A stretch of 64,000 bases of DNA from Bdellovibrionales bacterium (GTDB lineage: Bacteria > Bdellovibrionota > Bdellovibrionia > Bdellovibrionales > JAKFYE01): positions 869,408-933,407 of the forward strand of contig OZ220494.1 of NCBI GenBank assembly GCA_965116215.1, given 5' to 3'. The notes beneath the pieces were generated by a model. The model did not search any database. It saw only the letters and a list, made by a program, of their open reading frames with translations, and was not told where the DNA came from. Positions within the stretch are counted from its first letter, which is position 1. Every line of letters starts with the position of its first letter. Positions 39,518 through 52,469 of the stretch are shown here, piece after piece. The position numbers and the translations under genes are program-made.

Positions 39518-40762
39518 TTAATGCCATAAAGCACTTATTGGGATAGCCCAAAAGTTTTCTCCAAATGAGACAATATGTTGGCCTGTGTATAGAATAATTC
39601 CTACAAAAGGGATTTCTTTACTGATATTGGAAGCAAACCATTTTAGATGTTTAAATGAAGATCGACTTATAATGGATCCAGCTTTTACATCAATTCCAAT
39701 GATATCTCCTTTTTCATTTTTAACAATGAAGTCAATTTCACGTTTCTCACCATCACGATAATGGTATAATTCATATTCTTCATCTTGTGATTCAAGAATA
39801 GATGCTAATTGATGAAAGATAAAAGTTTCGAATAGTTTACCACTTTTATCACTATTGAGAGAAGTTTCTTCCTCTTGCCAATTTAGAAGAGAAGTCATTA
39901 ATCCTGTATCTGTTATAAATATTTTCTCCTGCTTACTCACTCGATCATAATCTGTTTTATGCCAAGGTTTTACTCGTTCTACAAGACAAAGACTTTCTAG
40001 AGCGTTTATGTATGTTTGTATCGTTAAGCGTGAGAGAGATAATATTTTACCTATATCTGATATAACTATAAACTTTGATGACCAAGCCGCTAATATAGTA
40101 ACTAATTTATTAAGACTATCTTTACGTTTGATCTGAGCAATATCTATAAGGTCACGTGCAATTAATGCTTCTAAATAATCTTTATACCATTTTCGTTTCT
40201 CTTTATATTTTTTTAATTTTAGTGGCTCAGGATAGCCGCCATTAAACGCATGCTTAATATATGTATGCTTATACATTCTTTTATATTGCGTATTTAAATT
40301 AAAATTTCCATCGAATATTTTTTTAATAAATGAAGGTTGTCTACCATATATCTCACCTAGTGTTAGCGGCCTTAATCTAATGTTTGTTATCCGTCCAGCT
40401 AAGGATTCTTTTACACTGGGTAAAGACTGTATATGGGTAGAACCTGTGAGGAGAAAACGGCCTGGTTTCTGATTTTCATCAACGTTTTGTTTTATGGCTT
40501 GCAATAAAAGTGGCGCACGTTGAATTTCATCAATAATCATAAGATCATTACCATGACGTATAAAGCTTTCTGGATCATCTAAAGCAGCATTTAAAAGTGT
40601 TATATTATCTAATGTACGATAAATTATTTTCTTACTTTTGAGGCTCTTTGCTAAAGTTGTTTTTCCACTTTGTCGTGGCCCAACCAGTAATAATACTCTT
40701 CGAGTCTTCAGAGCTTGTTTTATTTTTTTAGTTTGCCAACGTTTATAAATTTTCTGAGCCAT
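39518..40762 (-). CDS. AAA+ ATPase with C-terminal DUF4143-type nuclease-like domain
   Basis: GPRQSGKTTL, IIDEIQ, LTGS, ESLAGR, GGYPE, DTGL, EIDFIV..IDVK. Confidence 0.92.
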   Translation of the reverse strand: MAQKIYKRWQTKKIKQALKTRRVLLLVGPRQSGKTTLAKSLKSKKIIYRTLDNITLLNAALDDPESFIRHGNDLMIIDEIQRAPLLLQAIKQNVDENQKPGRFLLTGSTHIQSLPSVKESLAGRITNIRLRPLTLGEIYGRQPSFIKKIFDGNFNLNTQYKRMYKHTYIKHAFNGGYPEPLKLKKYKEKRKWYKDYLEALIARDLIDIAQIKRKDSLNKLVTILAAWSSKFIVISDIGKILSLSRLTIQTYINALESLCLVERVKPWHKTDYDRVSKQEKIFITDTGLMTSLLNWQEEETSLNSDKSGKLFETFIFHQLASILESQDEEYELYHYRDGEKREIDFIVKNEKGDIIGIDVKAGSIISRSSFKHLKWFASNISKEIPFVGIILYTGQHIVSFGENFWAIPISALWH

Positions 40763-41051: not shown

Positions 41052-42028
41052 ATCTACAACAGTAGAAATTAAATGGCCCTTCTAAACCTTGGAGCCTCTG
41101 AAGTTTCGTCATCTATCTACAACAGTAGAAATTAAATGGCCCTTCTAAACGAGGCATGTGATGTGGGAAGATCTTAATCTACAACAGTAGAAATTAAATG
41201 GCCCTTCTAAACATTGTTGTAGACGAAGTTCATAGGTTATCTACAACAGTAGAAATTAAATGGCCCTTCTAAACCAAGCAGTGCAAGCAGTCTGGAGCGA
41301 TTATCTACAACAGTAGAAATTAAATGGCCCTTCTAAACAAGAATGTAAAATATGACTTCGGTGGAAATCTACAACAGTAGAAATTAAATGGCCCTTCTAA
41401 ACTTAAATATTTTATCAAGTGATTATTTTATCTACAACAGTAGAAATTAAATGGCCCTTCTAAACTCGCACACAAGCCTTCCTGCAAATTTTATCTACAA
41501 CAGTAGAAATTAAATGGCCCTTCTAAACTTGTATCTTGTTGCTTGGGGAAGATTTATCTACAACAGTAGAAATTAAATGGCCCTTCTAAACTTAACTCTT
41601 GTGGCTGCCATTTTCCATATCTACAACAGTAGAAATTAAATGGCCCTTCTAAACTCATACAAAAGAAGTTATACCTCAGCATCTACAACAGTAGAAATTA
41701 AATGGCCCTTCTAAACTATTGTCAAATCCTTTAGCCTTTCTTGATCTACAACAGTAGAAATTAAATGGCCCTTCTAAACCTCTATATAGCTCGCCGTCTT
41801 CTCCAAATCTACAACAGTAGAAATTAAATGGCCCTTCTAAACCTTGATTTAGAATCAAAGTTTGATTCATCTACAACAGTAGAAATTAAATGGCCCTTCT
41901 AAACCTTTTAAATTATTAAGGGGGGGGCATATCTACAACAGTAGAAATTAAATGGCCCTTCTAAACGTTTTGCCATTGAGAAATTGAGTTGGATCTACAA
42001 CAGTAGAAATTAAATGGCCCTTCTAAAC
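41052..42028 (-). CRISPR. Type V-A CRISPR array: 16 identical 36-bp repeats and 15 spacers of 26-28 bp
   Basis: Minus-strand repeat GTTTAGAAGGGCCATTTAATTTCTACTGTTGTAGAT ends in the canonical Cas12a handle AATTTCTACTGTTGTAGAT. Confidence 0.99.
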
Positions 42029-42196: not shown

Positions 42197-42472
42197 CTAC
42201 TTAATAAAAATCAATTCATCCTCATTTTTAGCATATCCAAATCTCAATTGGGTACAATTTTTACTCAAAGAAAAAATAATCACACTATCTGTTTGTTTAA
42301 ATTCTTTCACAAAACTTCCCTCTATAACAGACACAATATTATTTAATATCCTACCACTATTTCTAATTTGAAAAACAGAGTACTGCAAACGATAACCAAA
42401 CTTTTCTAAAAACTTTGAAAACCTCGTCCTTATCTTATTATCGCTAATATCATAAGAAACAACTAACACCAT
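42197..42472 (-). CDS. cas2: CRISPR-associated endonuclease Cas2
   Basis: VSYDISDNK, GYRLQYSVF; GAGGAG RBS. Confidence 0.97.
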   Translation of the reverse strand: MVLVVSYDISDNKIRTRFSKFLEKFGYRLQYSVFQIRNSGRILNNIVSVIEGSFVKEFKQTDSVIIFSLSKNCTQLRFGYAKNEDELIFIK

Positions 42473-42701: not shown

Positions 42702-43706
42702 CTAAGACACTTTCTTCGCAGATGCCACAGAAGGAATTGAATCTGATAAAAGAAAAATAGGATATTCCTCTATCGACTTTTCACGAATAAAGCACCTATA
42801 ATATTGTTGCATATATAAAAATATATCTTCCTTATATTTTAAAATGGCTCTTAATAGAAAATTCACATAGGGCTGCCCCTTCTTACCTAAAATACGATAC
42901 TGTTTATTCACAATAGTAAAATCCTCTTCTTTTATCTCCTTTAAAGAGTGGGCTTTCTTAATTCGATCATCAATAATCGGTCTAAACGGCTCCACCAAAT
43001 CACAAACTAAAGATTTTCTTTGAAAAAAAGACTGATGATAAACACCCTTATAAACATCAAATCCATATAGACCCAATAGCCCCTCTATAAAATTAAATAA
43101 CATCGTATACCCCGTATCCTGCAAAGAATTAATAGGATCATGCTTAACTCGAGGCCTTCGAAAAACCCAATGACAATCTTGAAATAGAATTTTAAAATAT
43201 TCCCTTGATGCAATCCCTTCAAGACCTAAAATTTTATATAAATCCAAGGATTTTTCTTTCAAAGAATCATAAAAACCATAAAGCCGATCTATAGTTTCCT
43301 TTGTGCACTGATCTTTTCTTCTGATTTTTTTTAAAAGAAAAATTTGATTTTCAATTTTATTTCTTACTAAATGGGAAGCGATAGCAAGGGATTGATAATT
43401 GTACTGCTTTTCTCTTAATAAAAAGTTCCCCTCAGTTTTAGACCCCCAAATACCATAAACCCGTAAAGTCGGACTCATAAAGACAATAGAAAATCCAAAC
43501 TTTTTAGAACGCTGAAGAAGCCCTGACGTCAATGTCACATGACCAACAATATACATGGCAAAAAGTCGATAACAACTGGATTGATAAATAATTTTCTTGT
43601 CAGCATCTCGAACAACAATATTATCATTCTTAAAACTAAAAGTGTGTCCTTGACTTGGAAAAGCAAAGACAATTTGTTTTTCTCTAAAATCAGGAAGGCT
43701 TAACAT
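42702..43706 (-). CDS. cas1: Type V CRISPR-associated integrase Cas1
   Basis: MLSLPDFREKQI, EGNFLLR, LGLEG, GVYH, SLVCDLVEPFR. Confidence 0.97.
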   Translation of the reverse strand: MLSLPDFREKQIVFAFPSQGHTFSFKNDNIVVRDADKKIIYQSSCYRLFAMYIVGHVTLTSGLLQRSKKFGFSIVFMSPTLRVYGIWGSKTEGNFLLREKQYNYQSLAIASHLVRNKIENQIFLLKKIRRKDQCTKETIDRLYGFYDSLKEKSLDLYKILGLEGIASREYFKILFQDCHWVFRRPRVKHDPINSLQDTGYTMLFNFIEGLLGLYGFDVYKGVYHQSFFQRKSLVCDLVEPFRPIIDDRIKKAHSLKEIKEEDFTIVNKQYRILGKKGQPYVNFLLRAILKYKEDIFLYMQQYYRCFIREKSIEEYPIFLLSDSIPSVASAKKVS

Positions 43707-44263
43707 GCATCTGCTCTTTCATCACAGAGATTGGAGTATATACATCGAGCACATTTTTGAGGATTGGCTTGAAATGACTGTTTTAAACTATAGGACTGTA
43801 GACTATGAACTACGCTTTCAAAAGCCTCCTGCATGGACGGATCTTCTTCTGGAAGTAAAATAGGATAACTCTTATTTGTATCCATGCTATACACAACCAA
43901 TTTATTCACTTTATAGCCCATCTCCCGCAAAGAGTGGCATTGAGCGTAGAGTTGAAAAACATAACCATCATATATTTTCTGAACACGCTTTTTTCTCTCC
44001 CTTAGAGTTCCAGTGTTTTTATCAAAAGTATCAATCTTGCCATGTAACTTATATTTGGAAGAGTAAACAGGCAATCCCTGCAAAATATTCTGTCGTGTGC
44101 TATATTTTCTGGAGTCAATGGCCCCATGGGCCTGTAGGCCCTTAATCTGATCTTCACCTTGATAATTCATCTTCTCATAAGATCCATAGAGTTGATGAAA
44201 ATAAATAGATCTGGGACAAAAAATAAAATCATTTAAAAAAGAGATGGGAATATAAAACTCCAT
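43700..44263 (-). CDS. cas4: Type V CRISPR-associated Cas4
   Basis: ISFLNDFIFCPRSIYFH, GKID, ERK, QLYAQ, CARCIYSNLC Fe-S cysteines. Confidence 0.97.
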   Translation of the reverse strand: MEFYIPISFLNDFIFCPRSIYFHQLYGSYEKMNYQGEDQIKGLQAHGAIDSRKYSTRQNILQGLPVYSSKYKLHGKIDTFDKNTGTLRERKKRVQKIYDGYVFQLYAQCHSLREMGYKVNKLVVYSMDTNKSYPILLPEEDPSMQEAFESVVHSLQSYSLKQSFQANPQKCARCIYSNLCDERADAC

Positions 44264-44579: not shown

Positions 44580-47500
44580 TTAACTTGCCCTATCTGGTTT
44601 GGAATAATGAGTTCCGTTGACCCTCTTTTTTAAAGATTGATACCATTTCCTATTACTTAAATCGATTTTCCCTTCCCCGTGTCTTATCTGATCAACCATT
44701 AGCAAACCTTTTAAGGCAATATGATAGGCTCCATTGGCATCAGCATCTTGAGGCCCATTGTTATGTCCTATCGGAGCAACAAATTTTCCATCCTTATCTT
44801 TCTGATTATTAAAAAAATGACCGTTTTTATTTTTTACAGGTGAGATAATCCAATCCTCTTTGGAGTTGATTCGACTATTGCGCATTTGTAAAGTCAATTT
44901 CAATAACTTCATCAACTGCTCAAAAAAGTCTGCATTCTCCTGCTGTACTATTTCTTCCTTTATATTTTTCCCCTCTGGATAAGAAATAGAGTGTTGATTA
45001 AAGAGTTCTTTCATCTCTTTTGTAAGATTCACAGGATCACTTTTCCATTTATTATTCTCCTTTCTATTCTCTAAACGATCTCCATGAGTACAAACGACCC
45101 ACTCTTGTTGAAGTCCATCAGCTTTATTTGTAAAATTTTTATAGTTAAAACAAAATTCAAAATGCCCTTCCTTGTTATTAAATGCTATTCGATCAAATTT
45201 CTCAAAAAACTCTTGAGATTTTGGAAGGCTTTCATGCTTAGGGCGCAAAAGATCTATAAAACCCGTTGCCGGACAAACCTTAGAGGTGTAAGCAGCGTAG
45301 ACATAAAATAAAAAGCCTGTTTGCTTTCCTATCTTCTGAAAGCTCTCAAAAGGAGCTGTTAATTGTAGAGCCTTTAAAGCACCTCCCAACTCTTGTGGAT
45401 CGCACTCTTTGAACATAAGATAGTTCAGCTTATCAATAAGTCTTTTTTCTAATTTCTGATAAACTTGCTTCTCAACTTTCAAACGACCCCTCTTAAAACC
45501 AGAGTTTAAGTCTTCTAATACAACTATAGCATTATGTTGGACCATAAGCTGTGTTATCTTATGTACAACCTGTGACATATATCCTTCTTTGAGATCCTTA
45601 ATCTTCCCAATTGTTCCCCATGATTTTCTGGCACCATCTCTTTCCTTTTCCCTTTTATCAAGAAGATCATGGTAATCTTTTTTTCCCATGGGATTATTCA
45701 AACTACCTTGATCTAAAATCTCACCTTTCTGATTAATCACTGTATAATACGCCAAATGCCTTTCCCCTCGATCAATTCCAATAATATTCATATCCTTTGG
45801 AGGATGATTCAAAAGATTTTCTACATCTTTATTGATATTGATATCTTTATTGCTTGCCTTAAAATTACAATTAACAGATAAGTGAAGTAGGAACCTATCC
45901 TCTGTGTACCTTTTGTCTTTTATTATTTCATAGTTAAACCTATTCACCTTGGCTTTATCTTTGAATGTCAATAATTTATTTTCTTCTAATTTCAAAGAAT
46001 GCTGACTTAACCCTCGGTCTTTATTTTTATAAAACTTAGTCAGTTCTTTATGTTCCTCAGGAGAAAGTGTATGAGAATGTTCTTCTCCTGTTCGACTATC
46101 TACAGACTTATACGTCCTGCAAACAAGAGGTTCATTCTTTTTATGTATAGTATTATTTTTAATATCCGATTTTTTTCTAAAAAAGACTTCGCCACTCCCT
46201 AAATCAAAAACTCGATCTGGGTTATTATCTGCCAACAAATGTTTAAAGTACAGAGTATGAAGGTTATCTCTGCCTTTCTTTTGACGAAGACCTTTGTTTT
46301 TCTTTTCATAAAAATCTAAATCTTTATTAGAAATTTTAAATAAATATAAGTAATCTTTCTTTTCATCGCTTTGAGCTTCATCTAGCTCCCTTTTAGAAAC
46401 TGGAAAGAAATTAAATACTCGCTCTGATTTATCTTTTTTATCTAGAAATTCGATCATATTTAAAAAATCTTTATATCCAGAATATTTTTTACTTACTATA
46501 TCCTGTAGACAAGGATATTTTTCAAGATATCCATTCTTAAGATGGTCCTGAATATCCCTCACAGTCTGTGAAAGAATCTTATCTAAATCTGAATCTTGTA
46601 AAATCCATTTCATTTCTGGGTATTTTTCAATTTTTTTTATTATACTTGATGGTGTATTTTTCTCCAACGATGAAGAAGAAATAAGTGACTTAAGATCCTT
46701 TGATTCTTCTAAAGTATGTATTCCTCCCTCCTTTGAGAACTGAGAAACCTTTACTTTTAAAAAAGCAAGGATTTCTTTTTTATTATTTGGATACTTGCCC
46801 TGAAGAAAATGTCCTTTAGGTTGACAATACTCCAATCTTTCATATTCACTTTGATCCCCTTCCTTAATCTTATCTTTATTATGACATCTAAATAGTTTAG
46901 AATCTCTGCTTATACCCAAAAAATAATCATATTCATTATAACCCTCTATTTTTTTTCTAAAAATGTATCCGCCATTTTGAGTTCCATTATCAGATTTTTC
47001 TGTATATGAATCTGCAAAACCTTTAAGCAATGTTGAATGTTCAAAATTGAGCTTGTACTTCTCTACACTATAGGGCTTCTTTGTCAGATAATTCCGAGCT
47101 TGATTATAAAGAGGAATAATGAGACTAATACTTTCATACAACTTTTCAAACTCACTGTAAAACCCACCATCTGTTTCATAAACCTCAGCATTTTGTTTTT
47201 TATCTTTAGGCTTAAGTTGAAAATGAAAAGGTTTTAAAAAATGATAGAGTGCTATTACAGAATCTAAGTAATCCTTAATCTTAGAGATCTCATCATCCTT
47301 GTTCTTTAATTTTTCTTCTGCAATATCCTTATGCTCTTCAAAGATAGGATGAGCCTTCTTATAAGACTCCTTGATCCAATCTAAAATTTTTACTGGCTCA
47401 GAAGAAGTTCCGTCTTTACGTGTTCTGCTCGCCATTGGCTCTTTAAAATAGTCTAAAAGAGGTTGACTAAGAGCTCTCTGTTTTTTCTCTTTTAACGACA

Positions 47501-49484
47501 GTTGATAAGACTCTTTATCCTCTGATGCATTATGGGAACTCCTCCCTTTTTCAATAGAGACAACATTGCCCCTATTATTGTCTGCACGCTCCTTATTTTT
47601 ATAATCTTCATCTGAATAATAGTGAGTATAGTAATACTCCAAAGCCTTATGAATATCCGAAAGAGAATGATAAGATTTGTTAACCCACTTTTTTCTCTTG
47701 TCTTTTAATTTTTTTGTGGCCCCTTTTCCCTCAGGTGTAGGGAATAATTTTTGTTCAGCATAATATTCTAAACACTCTTTAATATCCCCCCACTGACGAA
47801 ATAGGCTTTGAGAAATCTGCGTCAAAGAGCTGTCATTTTTAATCCAGACCTTTGTTAAATCAGACTCTTCAAGGGATTCTGAAAGCTCTGAAATCTTTTC
47901 AGTCAGATGGATCACCCTCTCATTCGTTTCACTCTCTTCCCCTTGTTGTTTTTCCTCATTTTGAACTTGAGTCAAATAAACAGATCCATTTTTATCACTG
48001 ATATGAAACAGAGATGTTATTTGCTCGCATAAGTCAGCATCACTTTTTATAGCCTCAAAACGAAAAGAATTTGAATCCCTATCACTCAGAATTTGTTTAT
48101 AGAGTTCTACTAATTGGCACCCTTTAAGATCTTTTGCTATTCCCTTCTTTTGTTTAGCCTCATCCCCTTTACCTTCCTTCTGTAATCTCTTCACTTCTGA
48201 CTGAAACTGTTGCCTATAGAGATTGATCTCTTCATTAACCCCTTGTTGCTTCTCATTACCCTCTTTGCTCTGTCCCCCCAGAATCTGATTATACCAATCA
48301 ATACCCTTTTGAGTGAGACACTTATTAAAAGTTTTAAGACTAAAAAAATCATCTAGCTTTACATCAAATGTCTTTTCCACTTCAGAAAGCTCTTTTTGAA
48401 ATTCCCTCACCTTATCTACATCTGCCTTATGAGGACTCTGAGAAAGTTCTGATTGTATTTTCTTAAGTTTTTCATAACGATCCATATTGTCCAAAAAACG
48501 ATCTAGGTTCTCATGCACAATACGAAAAGCGATAGCCGTTGACTTTTCTTCATGAGTATAAATATTTTCACGGTTCTTGTGAAATCCCCCAAAATAAGCC
48601 GTCCACTTCTCGAAAGATTCTATAATTTTTTGAGGACCCTTATCAGGTGATTTCCCATCCACTTTCCACTCTGGCTTTTTAAATTCTTCTTTAAGACGAC
48701 TCTCTACTTCAGGTTTTTCTTTTAACCATTTGAGCAATAGCTCTTTAATTAATTCTTTCTTAAAAAGTTTTTTATCCTCAAGGCAAGATGCAATCTTTTT
48801 TCTTAATTCGCCTTCGTGTTTTTCCTTTTGAGCCAAAACATTTGAATTTTTTTTATTCTCCCTGCTATTTGACCTCAACTGATCGTGTCGTTTTTTGTAC
48901 TCCTCTAAATCTTCTATCTTAAAATTAAAATCCTTAAGCCTATTATCAATATGCCACTTATGATACTCATCAATAATTCTCTTGGCCTGTTTATACTTAG
49001 AAGCCTTGTCTCCATCTTCGCTTAATAACCCCTTCTCTTTAATATGACGCTTGGTCTTACCAACTGGTTTAAGACGAAAGCGCAGAGTCTTTGACAAAGA
49101 GTACTTATTGACAAATTCAGAAAATATCGACTTGGATAATATATCGGATATGGAAGTCCTATCTGAATCTCTAGAAACAAACCGAAGGCGAGGAGCCTCT
49201 TCCCTATAATCACTTTGTCTCTGTCTTTCAGCTCCAGCCCTTTCCCCTCCTAGTGAGTTGATTGACCGACCATGGACATGTTGTGAGTTCGTTTTTTTTG
49301 TTGCCCCTCCAATCTCTGTATCTGAATGACAACTCTCACCAACAACCTTGGGCAAAGTCTCATTCGCTTGTTGTAATGCCCCCACATTCTTCATCCCTTT
49401 ATGATAAGACGCCCTTTCATTTCCTCTTTCTGATAACTGTTCCCCTTGTACCTTTATAGCTTTACTCTTCTTAACTGAACCCAA
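44580..49484 (-). CDS. cas12a: Cas12a (Cpf1) effector, oversized (1634 aa)
   Basis: FVNKYSLSKTLRF, YNQARNYLTKKPYS, RuvC-I IGIDRGE, RuvC-II VLEDLN, LQMRNS, RuvC-III DADANGAYHIALKG; TTG start behind AAAGGGGGA. Confidence 0.98.
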   Translation of the reverse strand: MGSVKKSKAIKVQGEQLSERGNERASYHKGMKNVGALQQANETLPKVVGESCHSDTEIGGATKKTNSQHVHGRSINSLGGERAGAERQRQSDYREEAPRLRFVSRDSDRTSISDILSKSIFSEFVNKYSLSKTLRFRLKPVGKTKRHIKEKGLLSEDGDKASKYKQAKRIIDEYHKWHIDNRLKDFNFKIEDLEEYKKRHDQLRSNSRENKKNSNVLAQKEKHEGELRKKIASCLEDKKLFKKELIKELLLKWLKEKPEVESRLKEEFKKPEWKVDGKSPDKGPQKIIESFEKWTAYFGGFHKNRENIYTHEEKSTAIAFRIVHENLDRFLDNMDRYEKLKKIQSELSQSPHKADVDKVREFQKELSEVEKTFDVKLDDFFSLKTFNKCLTQKGIDWYNQILGGQSKEGNEKQQGVNEEINLYRQQFQSEVKRLQKEGKGDEAKQKKGIAKDLKGCQLVELYKQILSDRDSNSFRFEAIKSDADLCEQITSLFHISDKNGSVYLTQVQNEEKQQGEESETNERVIHLTEKISELSESLEESDLTKVWIKNDSSLTQISQSLFRQWGDIKECLEYYAEQKLFPTPEGKGATKKLKDKRKKWVNKSYHSLSDIHKALEYYYTHYYSDEDYKNKERADNNRGNVVSIEKGRSSHNASEDKESYQLSLKEKKQRALSQPLLDYFKEPMASRTRKDGTSSEPVKILDWIKESYKKAHPIFEEHKDIAEEKLKNKDDEISKIKDYLDSVIALYHFLKPFHFQLKPKDKKQNAEVYETDGGFYSEFEKLYESISLIIPLYNQARNYLTKKPYSVEKYKLNFEHSTLLKGFADSYTEKSDNGTQNGGYIFRKKIEGYNEYDYFLGISRDSKLFRCHNKDKIKEGDQSEYERLEYCQPKGHFLQGKYPNNKKEILAFLKVKVSQFSKEGGIHTLEESKDLKSLISSSSLEKNTPSSIIKKIEKYPEMKWILQDSDLDKILSQTVRDIQDHLKNGYLEKYPCLQDIVSKKYSGYKDFLNMIEFLDKKDKSERVFNFFPVSKRELDEAQSDEKKDYLYLFKISNKDLDFYEKKNKGLRQKKGRDNLHTLYFKHLLADNNPDRVFDLGSGEVFFRKKSDIKNNTIHKKNEPLVCRTYKSVDSRTGEEHSHTLSPEEHKELTKFYKNKDRGLSQHSLKLEENKLLTFKDKAKVNRFNYEIIKDKRYTEDRFLLHLSVNCNFKASNKDININKDVENLLNHPPKDMNIIGIDRGERHLAYYTVINQKGEILDQGSLNNPMGKKDYHDLLDKREKERDGARKSWGTIGKIKDLKEGYMSQVVHKITQLMVQHNAIVVLEDLNSGFKRGRLKVEKQVYQKLEKRLIDKLNYLMFKECDPQELGGALKALQLTAPFESFQKIGKQTGFLFYVYAAYTSKVCPATGFIDLLRPKHESLPKSQEFFEKFDRIAFNNKEGHFEFCFNYKNFTNKADGLQQEWVVCTHGDRLENRKENNKWKSDPVNLTKEMKELFNQHSISYPEGKNIKEEIVQQENADFFEQLMKLLKLTLQMRNSRINSKEDWIISPVKNKNGHFFNNQKDKDGKFVAPIGHNNGPQDADANGAYHIALKGLLMVDQIRHGEGKIDLSNRKWYQSLKKRVNGTHYSKPDRAS

Positions 49485-50015: not shown

Positions 50016-50090
50016 AAAGACAAAGACAAAGACAAAGACAAAGACAAAGACAAAGACAAAGACAAAGACAAAGACAAAGACAAAGACAAA
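50016..50090. repeat. Perfect hexanucleotide microsatellite (AAAGAC)12 + AAA
   Basis: Directly visible tandem array. Confidence 0.98.
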
Positions 50091-50506: not shown

Positions 50507-51142
50507 ATGTCCACTCAAAGTAAAAGATCAACTGCTGAAGAATTCTGGAAAGGCATGGCTGAACTCAAAGAACAAATGAAAGAGCAAATGAAAGACACTG
50601 ATCGACGAATGAAAGACACTGATCGGCAATTAAAGAAAACCAACCTCTGGCTCAAAGAACAAAAGAAAGAAACAGATCGGCACATTCAATATACCAATCG
50701 GCGTATTCAATATCTAGATGAGCTTTTTACCGGACAGTGGGGGAAACTTATGGAATCACTTGTTAAAGGAGATCTTGTCCGTTTGCTGAATGAAAAAAAC
50801 ATTCAAGTCTCAACACTGGCTCAAGAAACATCCACTGTCTTTGAAGAGAAAAACTACGAATTTGATATTATTGCCACAAATGGAGGAGAGGTTGTTGTGG
50901 TGGAAGTGAAAACCACTCTGCGCATGAAGGACGTAGACCATTTTATAAATAAACTCACGCTCTTTAAGAAAATCTTTTCTCACTATGCGAATAAGAAAAT
51001 CTACGGAGCCATAGCCTATCTAAAAGCCAATGAGGGAACAGGCAGCTACTCTGAAAAACAGGGGCTATTTGTCATAAGAGCCACAGGAAACAGTGCGAGT
51101 ATAATCAATAAAAAAGCCTTTAAACCAAAAATATTTGCCTAA
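50507..51142 (+). CDS. Coiled-coil + PD-(D/E)XK nuclease-fold protein (DUF3782-like), copy 1
   Basis: KDTDRRM-type heptads; WGKLMESLV, EFDIIA, VEVK, GLFVIRATG. Confidence 0.85.
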   Translation: MSTQSKRSTAEEFWKGMAELKEQMKEQMKDTDRRMKDTDRQLKKTNLWLKEQKKETDRHIQYTNRRIQYLDELFTGQWGKLMESLVKGDLVRLLNEKNIQVSTLAQETSTVFEEKNYEFDIIATNGGEVVVVEVKTTLRMKDVDHFINKLTLFKKIFSHYANKKIYGAIAYLKANEGTGSYSEKQGLFVIRATGNSASIINKKAFKPKIFA

Positions 51143-51162
51143 AACTTATAAGGAAAAAACTT

Positions 51163-51786
51163 ATGTCGTCTAAAAATAAAACATCAACTGCCGAAGAATT
51201 CTGGAAAGGTATGGCTGAACTGAAAGAACAAATGAAAGACACCGATCAACGAATGAAAGAAACAGATCGGCAATTAAAGGAAACCAACCTCTGGCTGAAA
51301 GAACAAAAAAAAGAAACTGATCGACACATTCAATATACCAATCAACGTATTCAATATCTAGATGAGCTTTTTACCGGACAGTGGGGAAAACTTATGGAAT
51401 CACTTGTTAAAGGAGATCTTGTCCGTTTGCTGAATGAAAAAAACATTCAAGTCTCAACGCTGGCTCAAGAAACATCCACTGTCTTTGAAGAGAAAAACTA
51501 CGAATTTGATATTATTGCCACAAATGGAGGAGAGGTTGTTGTGGTGGAAGTGAAAACCACTCTGCGCATGAAGGACGTAGACCATTTTATAAATAAACTC
51601 ACGCTCTTTAAGAAAATCTTTTCTCACTATGCGAATAAGAAAATCTACGGAGCCATAGCCTATTTAAAAGCTAATGAGGGAACAGCCAGCTACTCTGAAA
51701 AACAAGGGCTATTTGTTATCAGAGCCACGGGAAACAGTGCAAGCATAATCAATAAAAAAACCTTTAAACCAAAAATATTTTCCTAA
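51163..51786 (+). CDS. Coiled-coil + PD-(D/E)XK nuclease-fold protein, copy 2
   Basis: Near-identical to copy 1, coil 4 aa shorter. Confidence 0.85.
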   Translation: MSSKNKTSTAEEFWKGMAELKEQMKDTDQRMKETDRQLKETNLWLKEQKKETDRHIQYTNQRIQYLDELFTGQWGKLMESLVKGDLVRLLNEKNIQVSTLAQETSTVFEEKNYEFDIIATNGGEVVVVEVKTTLRMKDVDHFINKLTLFKKIFSHYANKKIYGAIAYLKANEGTASYSEKQGLFVIRATGNSASIINKKTFKPKIFS

Positions 51787-51812
51787 AACTTATAAGCAAG
51801 GAAGAAAAATTT

Positions 51813-52469
51813 ATGTCCACTCAAAACAAGAGATCACCTGCTGAAGAATTCTGGAAAGGCATGGCTGAACTGAAAGAACAAATGAAAGACACTGATCGAC
51901 GAATGAAAGAGCAAATGAAAGACACCGATCAACGAATAAAAGACACTGATCGGCAATTAAAGGAAGCTCATCTCTGGCTCAAAGAACAGAAAAAAGAAAC
52001 CGATCGACACATTCAATATACCAATCGGCGTATTCAATATCTAGATGAGCTTTTTACCGGACAGTGGGGAAAACTTATGGAATCACTTGTTAAAGGAGAT
52101 CTTGTCCGCTTGCTCAATGAAAAAAATATTCAGGTCTCAACACTGGCCCAAGAGACATCCACCGTTTTTGAAGAGAAAAACTACGAATTTGACATTATTG
52201 CCACAAATGGAGGAGAGATTGTTGTGGTTGAAGTGAAAACCACTCTGCGTCTTAAAGATGTGGATCACTTTATAAATAAACTCATGCTCTTTAAGAAAAT
52301 CTTTTCCCATTATGCAAATAAGAAAGTCTACGGAGCCATAGCCTATTTAAAAGCTAATGAGGGAACAGACAGTTACTCTGAAAAACAGGGGCTATTTGTC
52401 ATAAGAGCCACAGGAAACAGTGCGAGTATAATCAATAAAAAAACCTTTAAACCAAAAATATTTGCTTAA
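51813..52469 (+). CDS. Coiled-coil + PD-(D/E)XK nuclease-fold protein, copy 3
   Basis: Near-identical to copy 1, coil 7 aa longer. Confidence 0.85.
   Translation: MSTQNKRSPAEEFWKGMAELKEQMKDTDRRMKEQMKDTDQRIKDTDRQLKEAHLWLKEQKKETDRHIQYTNRRIQYLDELFTGQWGKLMESLVKGDLVRLLNEKNIQVSTLAQETSTVFEEKNYEFDIIATNGGEIVVVEVKTTLRLKDVDHFINKLMLFKKIFSHYANKKVYGAIAYLKANEGTDSYSEKQGLFVIRATGNSASIINKKTFKPKIFA

Follow-up and report, generated by a model that had tools for sequence, protein, structure and literature searches.

In canonical Cas12a, the protospacer-adjacent motif (PAM) is contacted by one lysine of the second wedge segment (WED-II) and by one lysine in a loop of the PAM-interacting (PI) domain. The choice of PAM limits the targeting of Cas12a editors and diagnostics, and three enzymes of a single PI type are the starting point for most engineering. 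The available text of PMC7261169 assigns PAM contacts to N547 and K548 of the As enzyme, and that of PMC7757703 states that active metagenomic Cas12a enzymes, whose PAMs range from TTTV to YYN, retain a GWxxxK motif as well as a conserved Lys. Here, we describe a cas12a gene in a 64,000-nt stretch of a Bdellovibrionales bacterium genome (the window; contig OZ220494.1, forward-strand positions 869,408 to 933,407). The open reading frame (ORF), located at 44580..49484 on the minus strand, encodes 1634 aa from a TTG start, contains all four Pfam Cas12a domains and has a best PDB match of 1e-252. Based on sequence comparisons, its central block of about 300-380 aa, comprising WED-II, PI and the third wedge segment (WED-III), behaves as one of several alternative, recombining Cas12a cassettes. 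We lean, by a modest degree, towards the reading that the gene encodes a probably active Cas12a with a recombined alternative cassette, the PAM of which would be short and pyrimidine-rich (N-Y-T-V-like) and not strict TTTV.

The window protein shares its architecture and all Pfam domains with the canonical enzymes FnCas12a, LbCas12a, AsCas12a and the reconstructed ReChb (5mga, 5xus, 5b43, 8qwd), to which it is matched by phmmer with E-values from 1e-133 to 1e-252; the CRISPR RNA (crRNA) handle and the cas4-cas1-cas2 genes are shared as well. The WED-II strands and WED-III also align with those of canonical Cas12a (hhalign 99.9; VIA Z about 10-11.6). In contrast to these enzymes, the window protein has a longer WED-II loop, a Y-x-Q-x-K loop and PI helices that were matched by neither sequence nor fold search. 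Its WED-III carries KISNKDLS and an extra loop ending in RK-x-RG, whereas the canonical sequence is QIYNKDFS. Two further differences from the canonical enzymes are an N-terminal extension of 118 aa and an additional segment inserted at about residues 1121-1179.

Positions 46420-47020 (minus strand) correspond to residues 822-1022 of the 1634-aa protein. As originally predicted, the GWDxNKE motif of WED-II and the KMLPKV loop are both replaced in this segment: the two strings quoted for them were found at residues 822-845 and 886-906, and neither the canonical GWDxNKE motif nor the canonical K-M-L/I-P-K-V/C loop occurs in the window protein. The first replacement, recognized by residue reading, phmmer and hhalign, is an expanded WED-II loop from G822 to K845 (46950..47021, minus strand; GFADSYTEKSDNGTQNGGYIFRKK). 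In the phmmer alignments with PDB chains, its sequence GFADSYTEKSDNGTQNGG pairs with GWDV--NKETD----N only through gaps. The loop is 6-7 residues longer than the canonical one and follows the pattern DS-x-TE-x-SDNGTQ-x-GG. An alignment of 40 sequences (A1) shows no variation at G822, T835, Q836, R843 and K844 of the loop, nor at Y854, G857, R883, Y886 and Q888 beyond it, and conservation of at least 90% at D825, S826, S831 and D832. Position 823 is F in the window protein and its nearest relatives (GF subtype) and W in most of the clade (GW subtype).

The second replacement is a short loop after the last WED-II strand, from Y886 to L906 (46767..46829, minus strand; YCQPKGHFLQGKYPNNKKEIL), which takes the place of the KMLPKV loop. 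It reads Y-C-Q-P-K-G-H-F-L-Q-G-K and retains a P-K dipeptide, and hhalign pairs it no more than nominally with LLPGASKMLPKVFF. Our structural model places a strand at residues 878-887 and a loop at 888-897, with blocks of predicted local distance difference test (pLDDT) values of 90-92. The lysine of the QPK triplet, K890 (46815-46817), stands in the loop that directly follows the last WED-II strand. Conserved to at least 90% in A1, it is a candidate for the PAM-reading lysine; the claim that this lysine had been replaced was therefore too strong. One alternative is that this structurally different cassette does the same job and still reads TTTV or TTV via the conserved lysine. We consider this unlikely; it is favored by the location of K890, topologically at the position of the canonical lysine loop, and by the RK pair ending the WED-II strand, which the profile alignment shows to be retained, and it is disfavored by the rebuilding of the WED-II lysine motif with an insertion of 6-7 residues.

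The PI domain (residues 881-1022; 46419..46844, minus strand) appears in an AlphaFold2 (AF2) model of the PI alone as seven helices between two strands, and no Pfam family was found over residues 802-1213 of the ORF. This helical region had been described as not alignable to the canonical PI, and our alignments agree. A phmmer search of all PDB chains returned 27 distinct sequences at E<=1e-3, all of them Cas12a except for one weak Cas12e match, with ReChb (1e-252) and FnCas12a (about 1e-204) as the best matches. In the three alignments listed, the match breaks across the PI, at query residues 886-1023 against ReChb and 858-988 against FnCas12a. A profile-profile alignment by hhalign, which compared 58 sequences of the variant type with 30 of the canonical type over the segment between the REC2 end and NLHTLY, covered 219 columns with 31% identity (Prob 99.9); the matched residues lie mostly in the WED-II strands and WED-III, with very few across the PI helices. 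The median length of this segment is 279 aa in the variant versus 221 aa in the canonical sequences.

We also built structural models, which had been proposed as a check. For the AF2 model of residues 790-1135 (WED-II, PI and WED-III; 72-row alignment, pLDDT 86.1), Foldseek retrieved only Cas12a-family chains at E<=1e-3 (TMq 0.30-0.44), and VIA-align gave Cas12a rows with Z 8.7-11.6 and 198-260 of 346 residues aligned, a number close to what the WED parts by themselves would account for. With the PI-only AF2 model (residues 876-1032, pLDDT 89.2, predicted template modelling score 0.81), Foldseek found nothing at E<=1e-3, FnCas12a appearing at rank 32 with E 2.4 and TMq 0.16, in a search that had no positive control. 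In VIA-align, the same model reached at most Z 5.4 among 48,161 representative chains, where it resembled generic helical proteins, and at most Z 4.6 among the 628 top chains from Foldseek; the best 50 of either comparison included no Cas12a. The modeled PI bundle thus has no detectable likeness to solved PI domains, which is short of proof of a new fold.

Other natural PI variants, such as the As-like MIPKCS type, the Moraxella-like type, AmCas12a (8kgf) and, in the available text of PMC12375029, RbrCas12a_1, show that no part of Cas12a varies more than the PI and that PAMs other than TTTV can occur; none of the solved PI variants matches the PI of the window protein. AmCas12a aligns with the 790-1135 model like other solved Cas12a proteins (Z 10.0, 228 residues aligned) and is absent among the PI-only matches listed.

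The original prediction of a divergent PI clade was borne out. A search with query residues 800-1060 against 5.8 billion proteins, of the kind suggested for defining such a clade, gave 78 matches including the window protein, nearly all of which span the entire query region at 31-54% identity. The variant module is carried by 76 of the 77 database relatives: the xDNGTQ-type pattern occurs in 74, SNNGTQ in two more, and one has no anchor. ERxxYxQxK is present in 69 of the 74 motif-bearing relatives, and the GW tryptophan is retained in 49 relatives and is Phe in 26, the window protein and its nearest relatives belonging to the latter. This conservation in 76/77 relatives rules out a singleton oddity or a sequencing artefact. 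The helical PI alone, searched by phmmer against 1.84 billion representatives, found eight proteins at E<=1e-3, the window protein included; the PI is too divergent for searches with single sequences, and the size of the clade was therefore judged from the WED-II/PI region. We also scanned one genome per species, which yielded 77 loci, 69 of them with a full-length cas12a. Among these 69, the PI is of the variant type in 13, canonical (GWDxNK and KMLPKV) in 35 and of other types, including As-like MIPKCS, in 21. The 13 variant loci come from Bacteroidota, Planctomycetota, Lentisphaerota and Treponema. Database names of variant members were nothing more specific than Cas12a or Cpf1. The carriers of the variant cassette form an uncharacterised, large natural group of Cas12a whose PI was matched by no solved structure.

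Further PI forms were observed in L001, L009 and L061, which are close relatives by backbone and in which the lysine loop is preceded by a long insertion that is charged and probably coiled (e.g., L001, ...LQEEEESKNLDALTKRKKG...YKYFKDGTTMIPKC).

What the original prediction did not recognize is that WED-II, PI and WED-III together behave as one recombining cassette. In domain-wise BLASTP, the RuvC-Nuc part of the window protein (P0001 in these comparisons and in the trees) is 59-61% identical to that of proteins with other PI types, namely L001 (As-like), L002 and L003 (GWD-type WED-II loop), and 56-59% identical to that of its variant relatives. Identity drops to 34-40% when it is compared with the RuvC-Nuc part of the variant carriers P0005, P0010, L010 and L038, in which WED-II is 55-57% identical to that of P0001 and the PI aligns over its full length. 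On a FastTree phylogeny of RuvC-Nuc with 119 rows, the variant label has to change 20 times, and well-supported branches force at least 12 of these changes; on a quick IQ-TREE tree with 44 rows it has to change 10 times, with at least seven changes forced by starred branches. The IQ-TREE tree contains sister pairs of unlike PI type: L024/L057 (100), L015/L017 (98), and L020 with (P0036, L014) (99). An approximately unbiased (AU) test rejects a single variant clade, with a log-likelihood difference (delta lnL) of 695 and p 4e-67.

When identity is calculated per 40-column window in these three sister pairs, most values for the REC and RuvC-Nuc parts are 60-95%, and those for a central segment of about 300 aa that holds WED-II, PI and WED-III are 2-40%. 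The identity troughs, mapped on P0001, place the variant cassette at about residues 816-1195 (45900..47039, minus strand). Its 5' edge lies just past KLNFE (about residue 816), and its 3' edge is approximate, at about residue 1097 to residue 1195 depending on the pair. WED-III co-varies with the cassette, KISNKDLS and the extra loop occurring with the variant type and QIYNKDFS with the canonical type. Because homologous cassettes sit on backbones that are only 34-61% identical in RuvC-Nuc, while other PI types sit on close backbones, the cassette has apparently moved between cas12a genes by recombination. A limited literature search turned up no account of this cassette and none of PI exchange in Cas12a.

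The genome G511, closely related to that of L014, deserves separate mention. Its cas12a is split over three contigs (G511:C6, C51 and C58; L134, L124), the N- and C-terminal pieces being 97% and 91% identical to the variant-type gene of L014, and the middle piece, on a 2-kb contig, being 66% identical to L014 with an As-like PI. To judge from these sequences, G511 may represent a contemporary polymorphism of the cassette within a population, or mis-binning.

Cas9 orthologs, e.g., those with the different PI domains of Neisseria Cas9, combine related backbones with unrelated PAM-reading modules, which implies recombination. The Cas9 swap concerns a C-terminal unit in another effector family, whereas the Cas12a unit is internal and includes WED-II, PI and WED-III. 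The variant clade and its natural mosaics mark the limits of cut-and-paste cassettes and could serve as material for PAM-diversified chimeras. If the cassette reading is true, they would also offer a PI family of unsolved fold for re-targeting Cas12a editors by cassette grafting. Whether Cas12a achieves a PAM switch or escape from anti-CRISPRs by module exchange, as Cas9 systems do, is testable.

In the mechanism that we propose, the enzyme would process its own crRNA with the conserved His of NLHT, and a double-stranded DNA (dsDNA) target would be licensed via a 5' PAM held between WED, REC1 and PI; an R-loop would then form and RuvC would cut. We infer the contact residues and the PAM from conservation and from the models. 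Bases could be read by K890 and Q888, in the loop after strand 878-887, and by T835 and Q836 of the long WED-II loop, which may also contribute D825, S826, S831 and D832; the helical bundle would be a third PAM-reading element. The variant cassette may read a target-flanking motif other than TTTV.

Protospacers were attributed only where a relative encodes its array and an intact variant Cas12a on one contig, and two such cases were found. The first, spacer 7 of L035, matches 28/28 positions in a repeat-free 1919-bp metagenome contig (L096), with a 5' flank of ...GGTCTC, i.e., TCTC at -4 to -1; the ORF that this protospacer overlaps has three viral relatives, in viral contigs. The second, spacer 3 of L014, has its target in a chromosomal gene within the L014 metagenome-assembled genome (MAG), where 27/28 positions match (all but position 8) and the flank is GCTA. 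Both flanks fit N-C-T-V, with T at -2, a pyrimidine at -3 and non-T at -1. Self-matches that appear to be tolerated were also found. The leader-proximal spacer of L010 matches at least 17 places in its own MAG (G203; e.g., L101 165-190 and L102 1501-1526), with six perfect matches; it targets a palindromic, multi-copy element that resembles repetitive extragenic palindromes and has GCAG or GCGG as its 5' flank. A tolerated self-match in G511 is flanked by TAGA. These tolerated self-matches (GCAG, GCGG, TAGA) fit a need for T at -2, and the flanks argue against a G- or A-rich PAM. Taken together, they give weak hints of a relaxed Y-T-V or N-Y-T-V motif for the clade.

Regarding the suggestion of a non-TTTV specificity, the divergent PI clade stands, but a different PAM does not follow, since TCTC and GCTA, although not TTTV, lie within the relaxed range of Cas12a. 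The alternative that the cassette still reads TTTV or TTV would accommodate the T at -2 that was present in all flanks seen, and the TTTG flank of a target of G511 spacer 37. It is also in keeping with the available text of PMC13330018, in which the PI is the most variable Cas12a domain, yet 21 of 21 new orthologs were assayed on a TTTV substrate. Nevertheless, position -3 is C in both of the attributable flanks (TCTC and GCTA) and position -4 is G in one, while the TTTG case is not assignable to the variant PI. If the PAM were plain TTTV, two unrelated PI architectures could read one motif.

At the other extreme, the cassette could read a distinct PAM outside the T-rich family, for example with C required at -3 (NCTV), so that cassette exchange would amount to a PAM switch. 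We regard this as distinctly unlikely, although both attributable flanks are N-C-T-V, the PI is without detectable likeness to known PI domains, and close backbones carry unlike cassettes, as would be expected if PAM switching were selected. Additionally, the available text of PMC12375029 describes natural Cas12a enzymes with G-start or GTV PAMs, and names an enzyme from a Bacteroidales RC9 genome as the sole failure on test dsDNA. Against a distinct PAM, there are only two flanks (n=2), one of them from a self-site that is tolerated also as a perfect match, and both come from outside the GF subtype. Furthermore, CTV lies within the relaxed (pyrimidine-T-V) range of some canonical Cas12a enzymes.

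A broader possibility, which we find doubtful, is that the block is a mobile specificity cassette with a fold unlike solved structures, the natural swapping of which would change both the PAM (to one like N-C-T-V) and the surfaces exposed to anti-CRISPRs. PAM-mimicking, WED-binding and lysine-acetylating anti-CRISPRs exploit Cas12a surfaces of that block.

Several points weigh against our preferred reading, i.e., an active Cas12a with a recombined cassette and a relaxed N-Y-T-V-like PAM. The two protospacers tied to variant effectors are both of the GW subtype and not of the GF subtype of the window. The GCTA site is also a perfect 28/28 self-match in G511, which shares spacer 3 with L014, so GCTA may be a tolerated non-PAM site. 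Spacer 37 of G511 matches a phage-like region of G507 (phrog_38413 at 6.8e-34, tail-like matches and a BACON domain) with a TTTG flank, which, if anything, fits TTTV; this protospacer is not assignable to the variant PI because the G511 cas12a is split and its middle piece is As-like. LbCas12a structures with TCTA and TCCA PAMs are among the Foldseek matches of the 790-1135 model, and TCTC or TCTV-type sequences are also known weak PAMs of canonical enzymes. The models are without nucleic acid, so that the contact residues are guesses. The PI-only fold searches had no canonical PI folded alone as a control, and a missing match does not equal a new fold. The trees were built by quick methods, from a sample partly chosen by PI similarity.

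The spacers of the window itself belong on the same side. Analysis of protospacer flanks had been suggested as a check; it gave nothing for the five of 15 window spacers that were scanned, and TCTC and GCTA came from relatives. As exact 22-mers, four of these spacers (including 1, 4 and 5) had 0 matches in viral contigs and one (spacer 7) had 0 matches in metagenome contigs. The whole window array gave repeat-like matches only, and no spacer match, against INPHARED phages. By blastn-short against its own genome it found just the array itself among the matches listed, and it had no protospacer in 201 genomes of its order. Two weak candidates in these 201 genomes were dropped, one for 5/26 mismatches and the other for a gapped match.

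Searches with the arrays of relatives added no further flanks. The arrays of L010, L008, L014, L064 and L031 had no spacer match in phages, and spacers 2, 3, 7 and 9 of L035 had 0 matches in viral contigs. No protospacer was found for the L024 array in 301 family genomes or for the L010 and L035 arrays in 101 relatives each, in searches of large genome sets that score only 2-5 candidates per genome. The G511 array gave nothing past the known matches in 151 relatives. A self-target search in G202, G204, G205, G506, G508, G509 and G510 found none, and an all-against-all comparison of 1112 unique spacers with all collected loci gave nothing new.

The phage searches did reveal stretches that resemble the repeats. 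The Capybara microvirus Cap1_SP_161 (MK496734.1 2204-2233) carries a 30-nt stretch 99% identical to the repeat of the window array, Leptospira LE1-type phages (KF114879.1 64619-64641) carry 23 nt of it, and the Methanosarcina virus MetMV (MK170447.1 14827-14926) has repeat-like stretches that match the repeats of L010 and L008. These phage-borne stretches could be viral mini-arrays or, following a known concept, solitary repeats that function as RNA anti-CRISPRs.

Outside the cassette, the window protein has the features of a working effector. Pfam places the REC1 and REC2 lobes (PF18501 and PF21918) at residues 165-433 (5.2e-48) and 519-801 (2.9e-38), RuvC_1 (PF18516) at 1214-1616 (8.6e-93) and NUC (PF18510) at 1405-1561 (2e-53). 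In A1, the RuvC motif columns of D1238 and E1324 are invariant and that of D1582 is at least 90% conserved; we take the catalytic role of these residues to carry over from the Cas12a family. In WED-III, N1074 and H1076, inside DNLHTLYFK, are invariant, and the His and Lys around NLHTLYxK are presumably the residues that process pre-crRNA. Downstream of cas12a, and likewise on the minus strand, follow cas4 (43700..44263; Pfam Cas_Cas4, 5.6e-08), cas1 (42702..43706; Cas_Cas1, 6.4e-45), cas2 (42197..42472; CRISPR_Cas2, 3.3e-14) and then the CRISPR array (41052..42028), with 16 identical 36-nt repeats and 15 distinct spacers of 26-28 nt. The original description of the crRNA handle as canonical was correct: all 16 repeats end in AATTTCTACTGTTGTAGAT, and the handle AAUUUCUACU-GUU-GUAGAU, which we take to be the canonical one of Cas12a, is present, with the spacers 3' of it. 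An identical handle occurs in the arrays of most related loci. Because the RuvC, Nuc and processing motifs, cas4-cas1-cas2 and the 15-spacer array with its canonical handle are all intact, the gene is predicted to encode a complete type V-A effector that is probably active.

These features bear on the alternative that the protein is a decayed or non-PAM-dependent effector, or one that has shifted its substrate as in Cas12a2 and Cas12a3. In its favor, two genomes of the clade tolerate perfect self-targets, and Cas12a2 and Cas12a3 chains (8d4a, 21we, 9hm6), which use V-A-type repeats and have a related WED fold, are among the structural matches of the WED parts (Z 6.5-8.1). Nevertheless, we regard this alternative as highly improbable. 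The gene has an intact reading frame with conserved motifs in RuvC, Nuc and WED-III, cas4, cas1, cas2 and 15 distinct spacers are present, the cassette is conserved in 76/77 relatives, and the tolerated self-sites are without a Y-T-V flank, GCTA excepted. Cas12a2 and Cas12a3 replace Nuc by other modules, whereas the window protein keeps the Cas12a Nuc domain (2e-53); together with the absence of Cas12a2 and Cas12a3 chains from the 27 phmmer PDB matches, this rules out a Cas12a2 or Cas12a3 identity.

Two further parts of the protein lie outside the WED-II/PI segment. The N-terminal extension (49131..49484, minus strand) comprises about 118 charged residues, the usual Cas12a start SIFSEFVNKYSLSKTLRF beginning at residue 119. 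There is no in-frame ATG, GTG or TTG between residues 44 and 119, and a Shine-Dalgarno-like AAGGGGGA is located 6 nt upstream of the TTG start. The extension aligns from residue 1 with that of the closest relative, P0003 (35% identity), which rules out a false extension; relatives other than P0003 begin about 10 residues before LSKTLRF. Its GC content is 43%, versus 33% in the remaining cas12a gene. The insert of about 45-60 aa between WED-III and RuvC-I (residues about 1121-1179, positions about 45948-46124, minus strand; ..CRTYKSVDSRTGEEHSH...KLLTFKDKAKVNRF) is missing from six other aligned Cas12a proteins and is unaligned in the phmmer matches.

The window sits on a single 1.82-Mb contig with 36.7% GC. 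Among 31 related genomes searched, Cas12a is present in one, which is the window's own genome, so the locus looks horizontally acquired. In the same genome, outside the window, a fragment (G000:C1:157479-157706, minus strand) is 61% identical to Cas12a residues 1172-1249 with three in-frame stops, and looks, from its sequence, like a remnant of another cas12a gene. Directly past the leader-distal end of the array lies a gene for an AAA_14/DUF4143 ATPase with a weak NERD-domain match (39518-40762, minus strand). On the other side of cas12a, a 100-aa ORF contains a perfect AAAGAC tandem repeat of 12.5 units (50016-50090, plus strand). Downstream of this repeat (50507-52469, plus strand), there are three successive paralogous ORFs of about 210 aa, with short repeats of 21-33 nt near each start.

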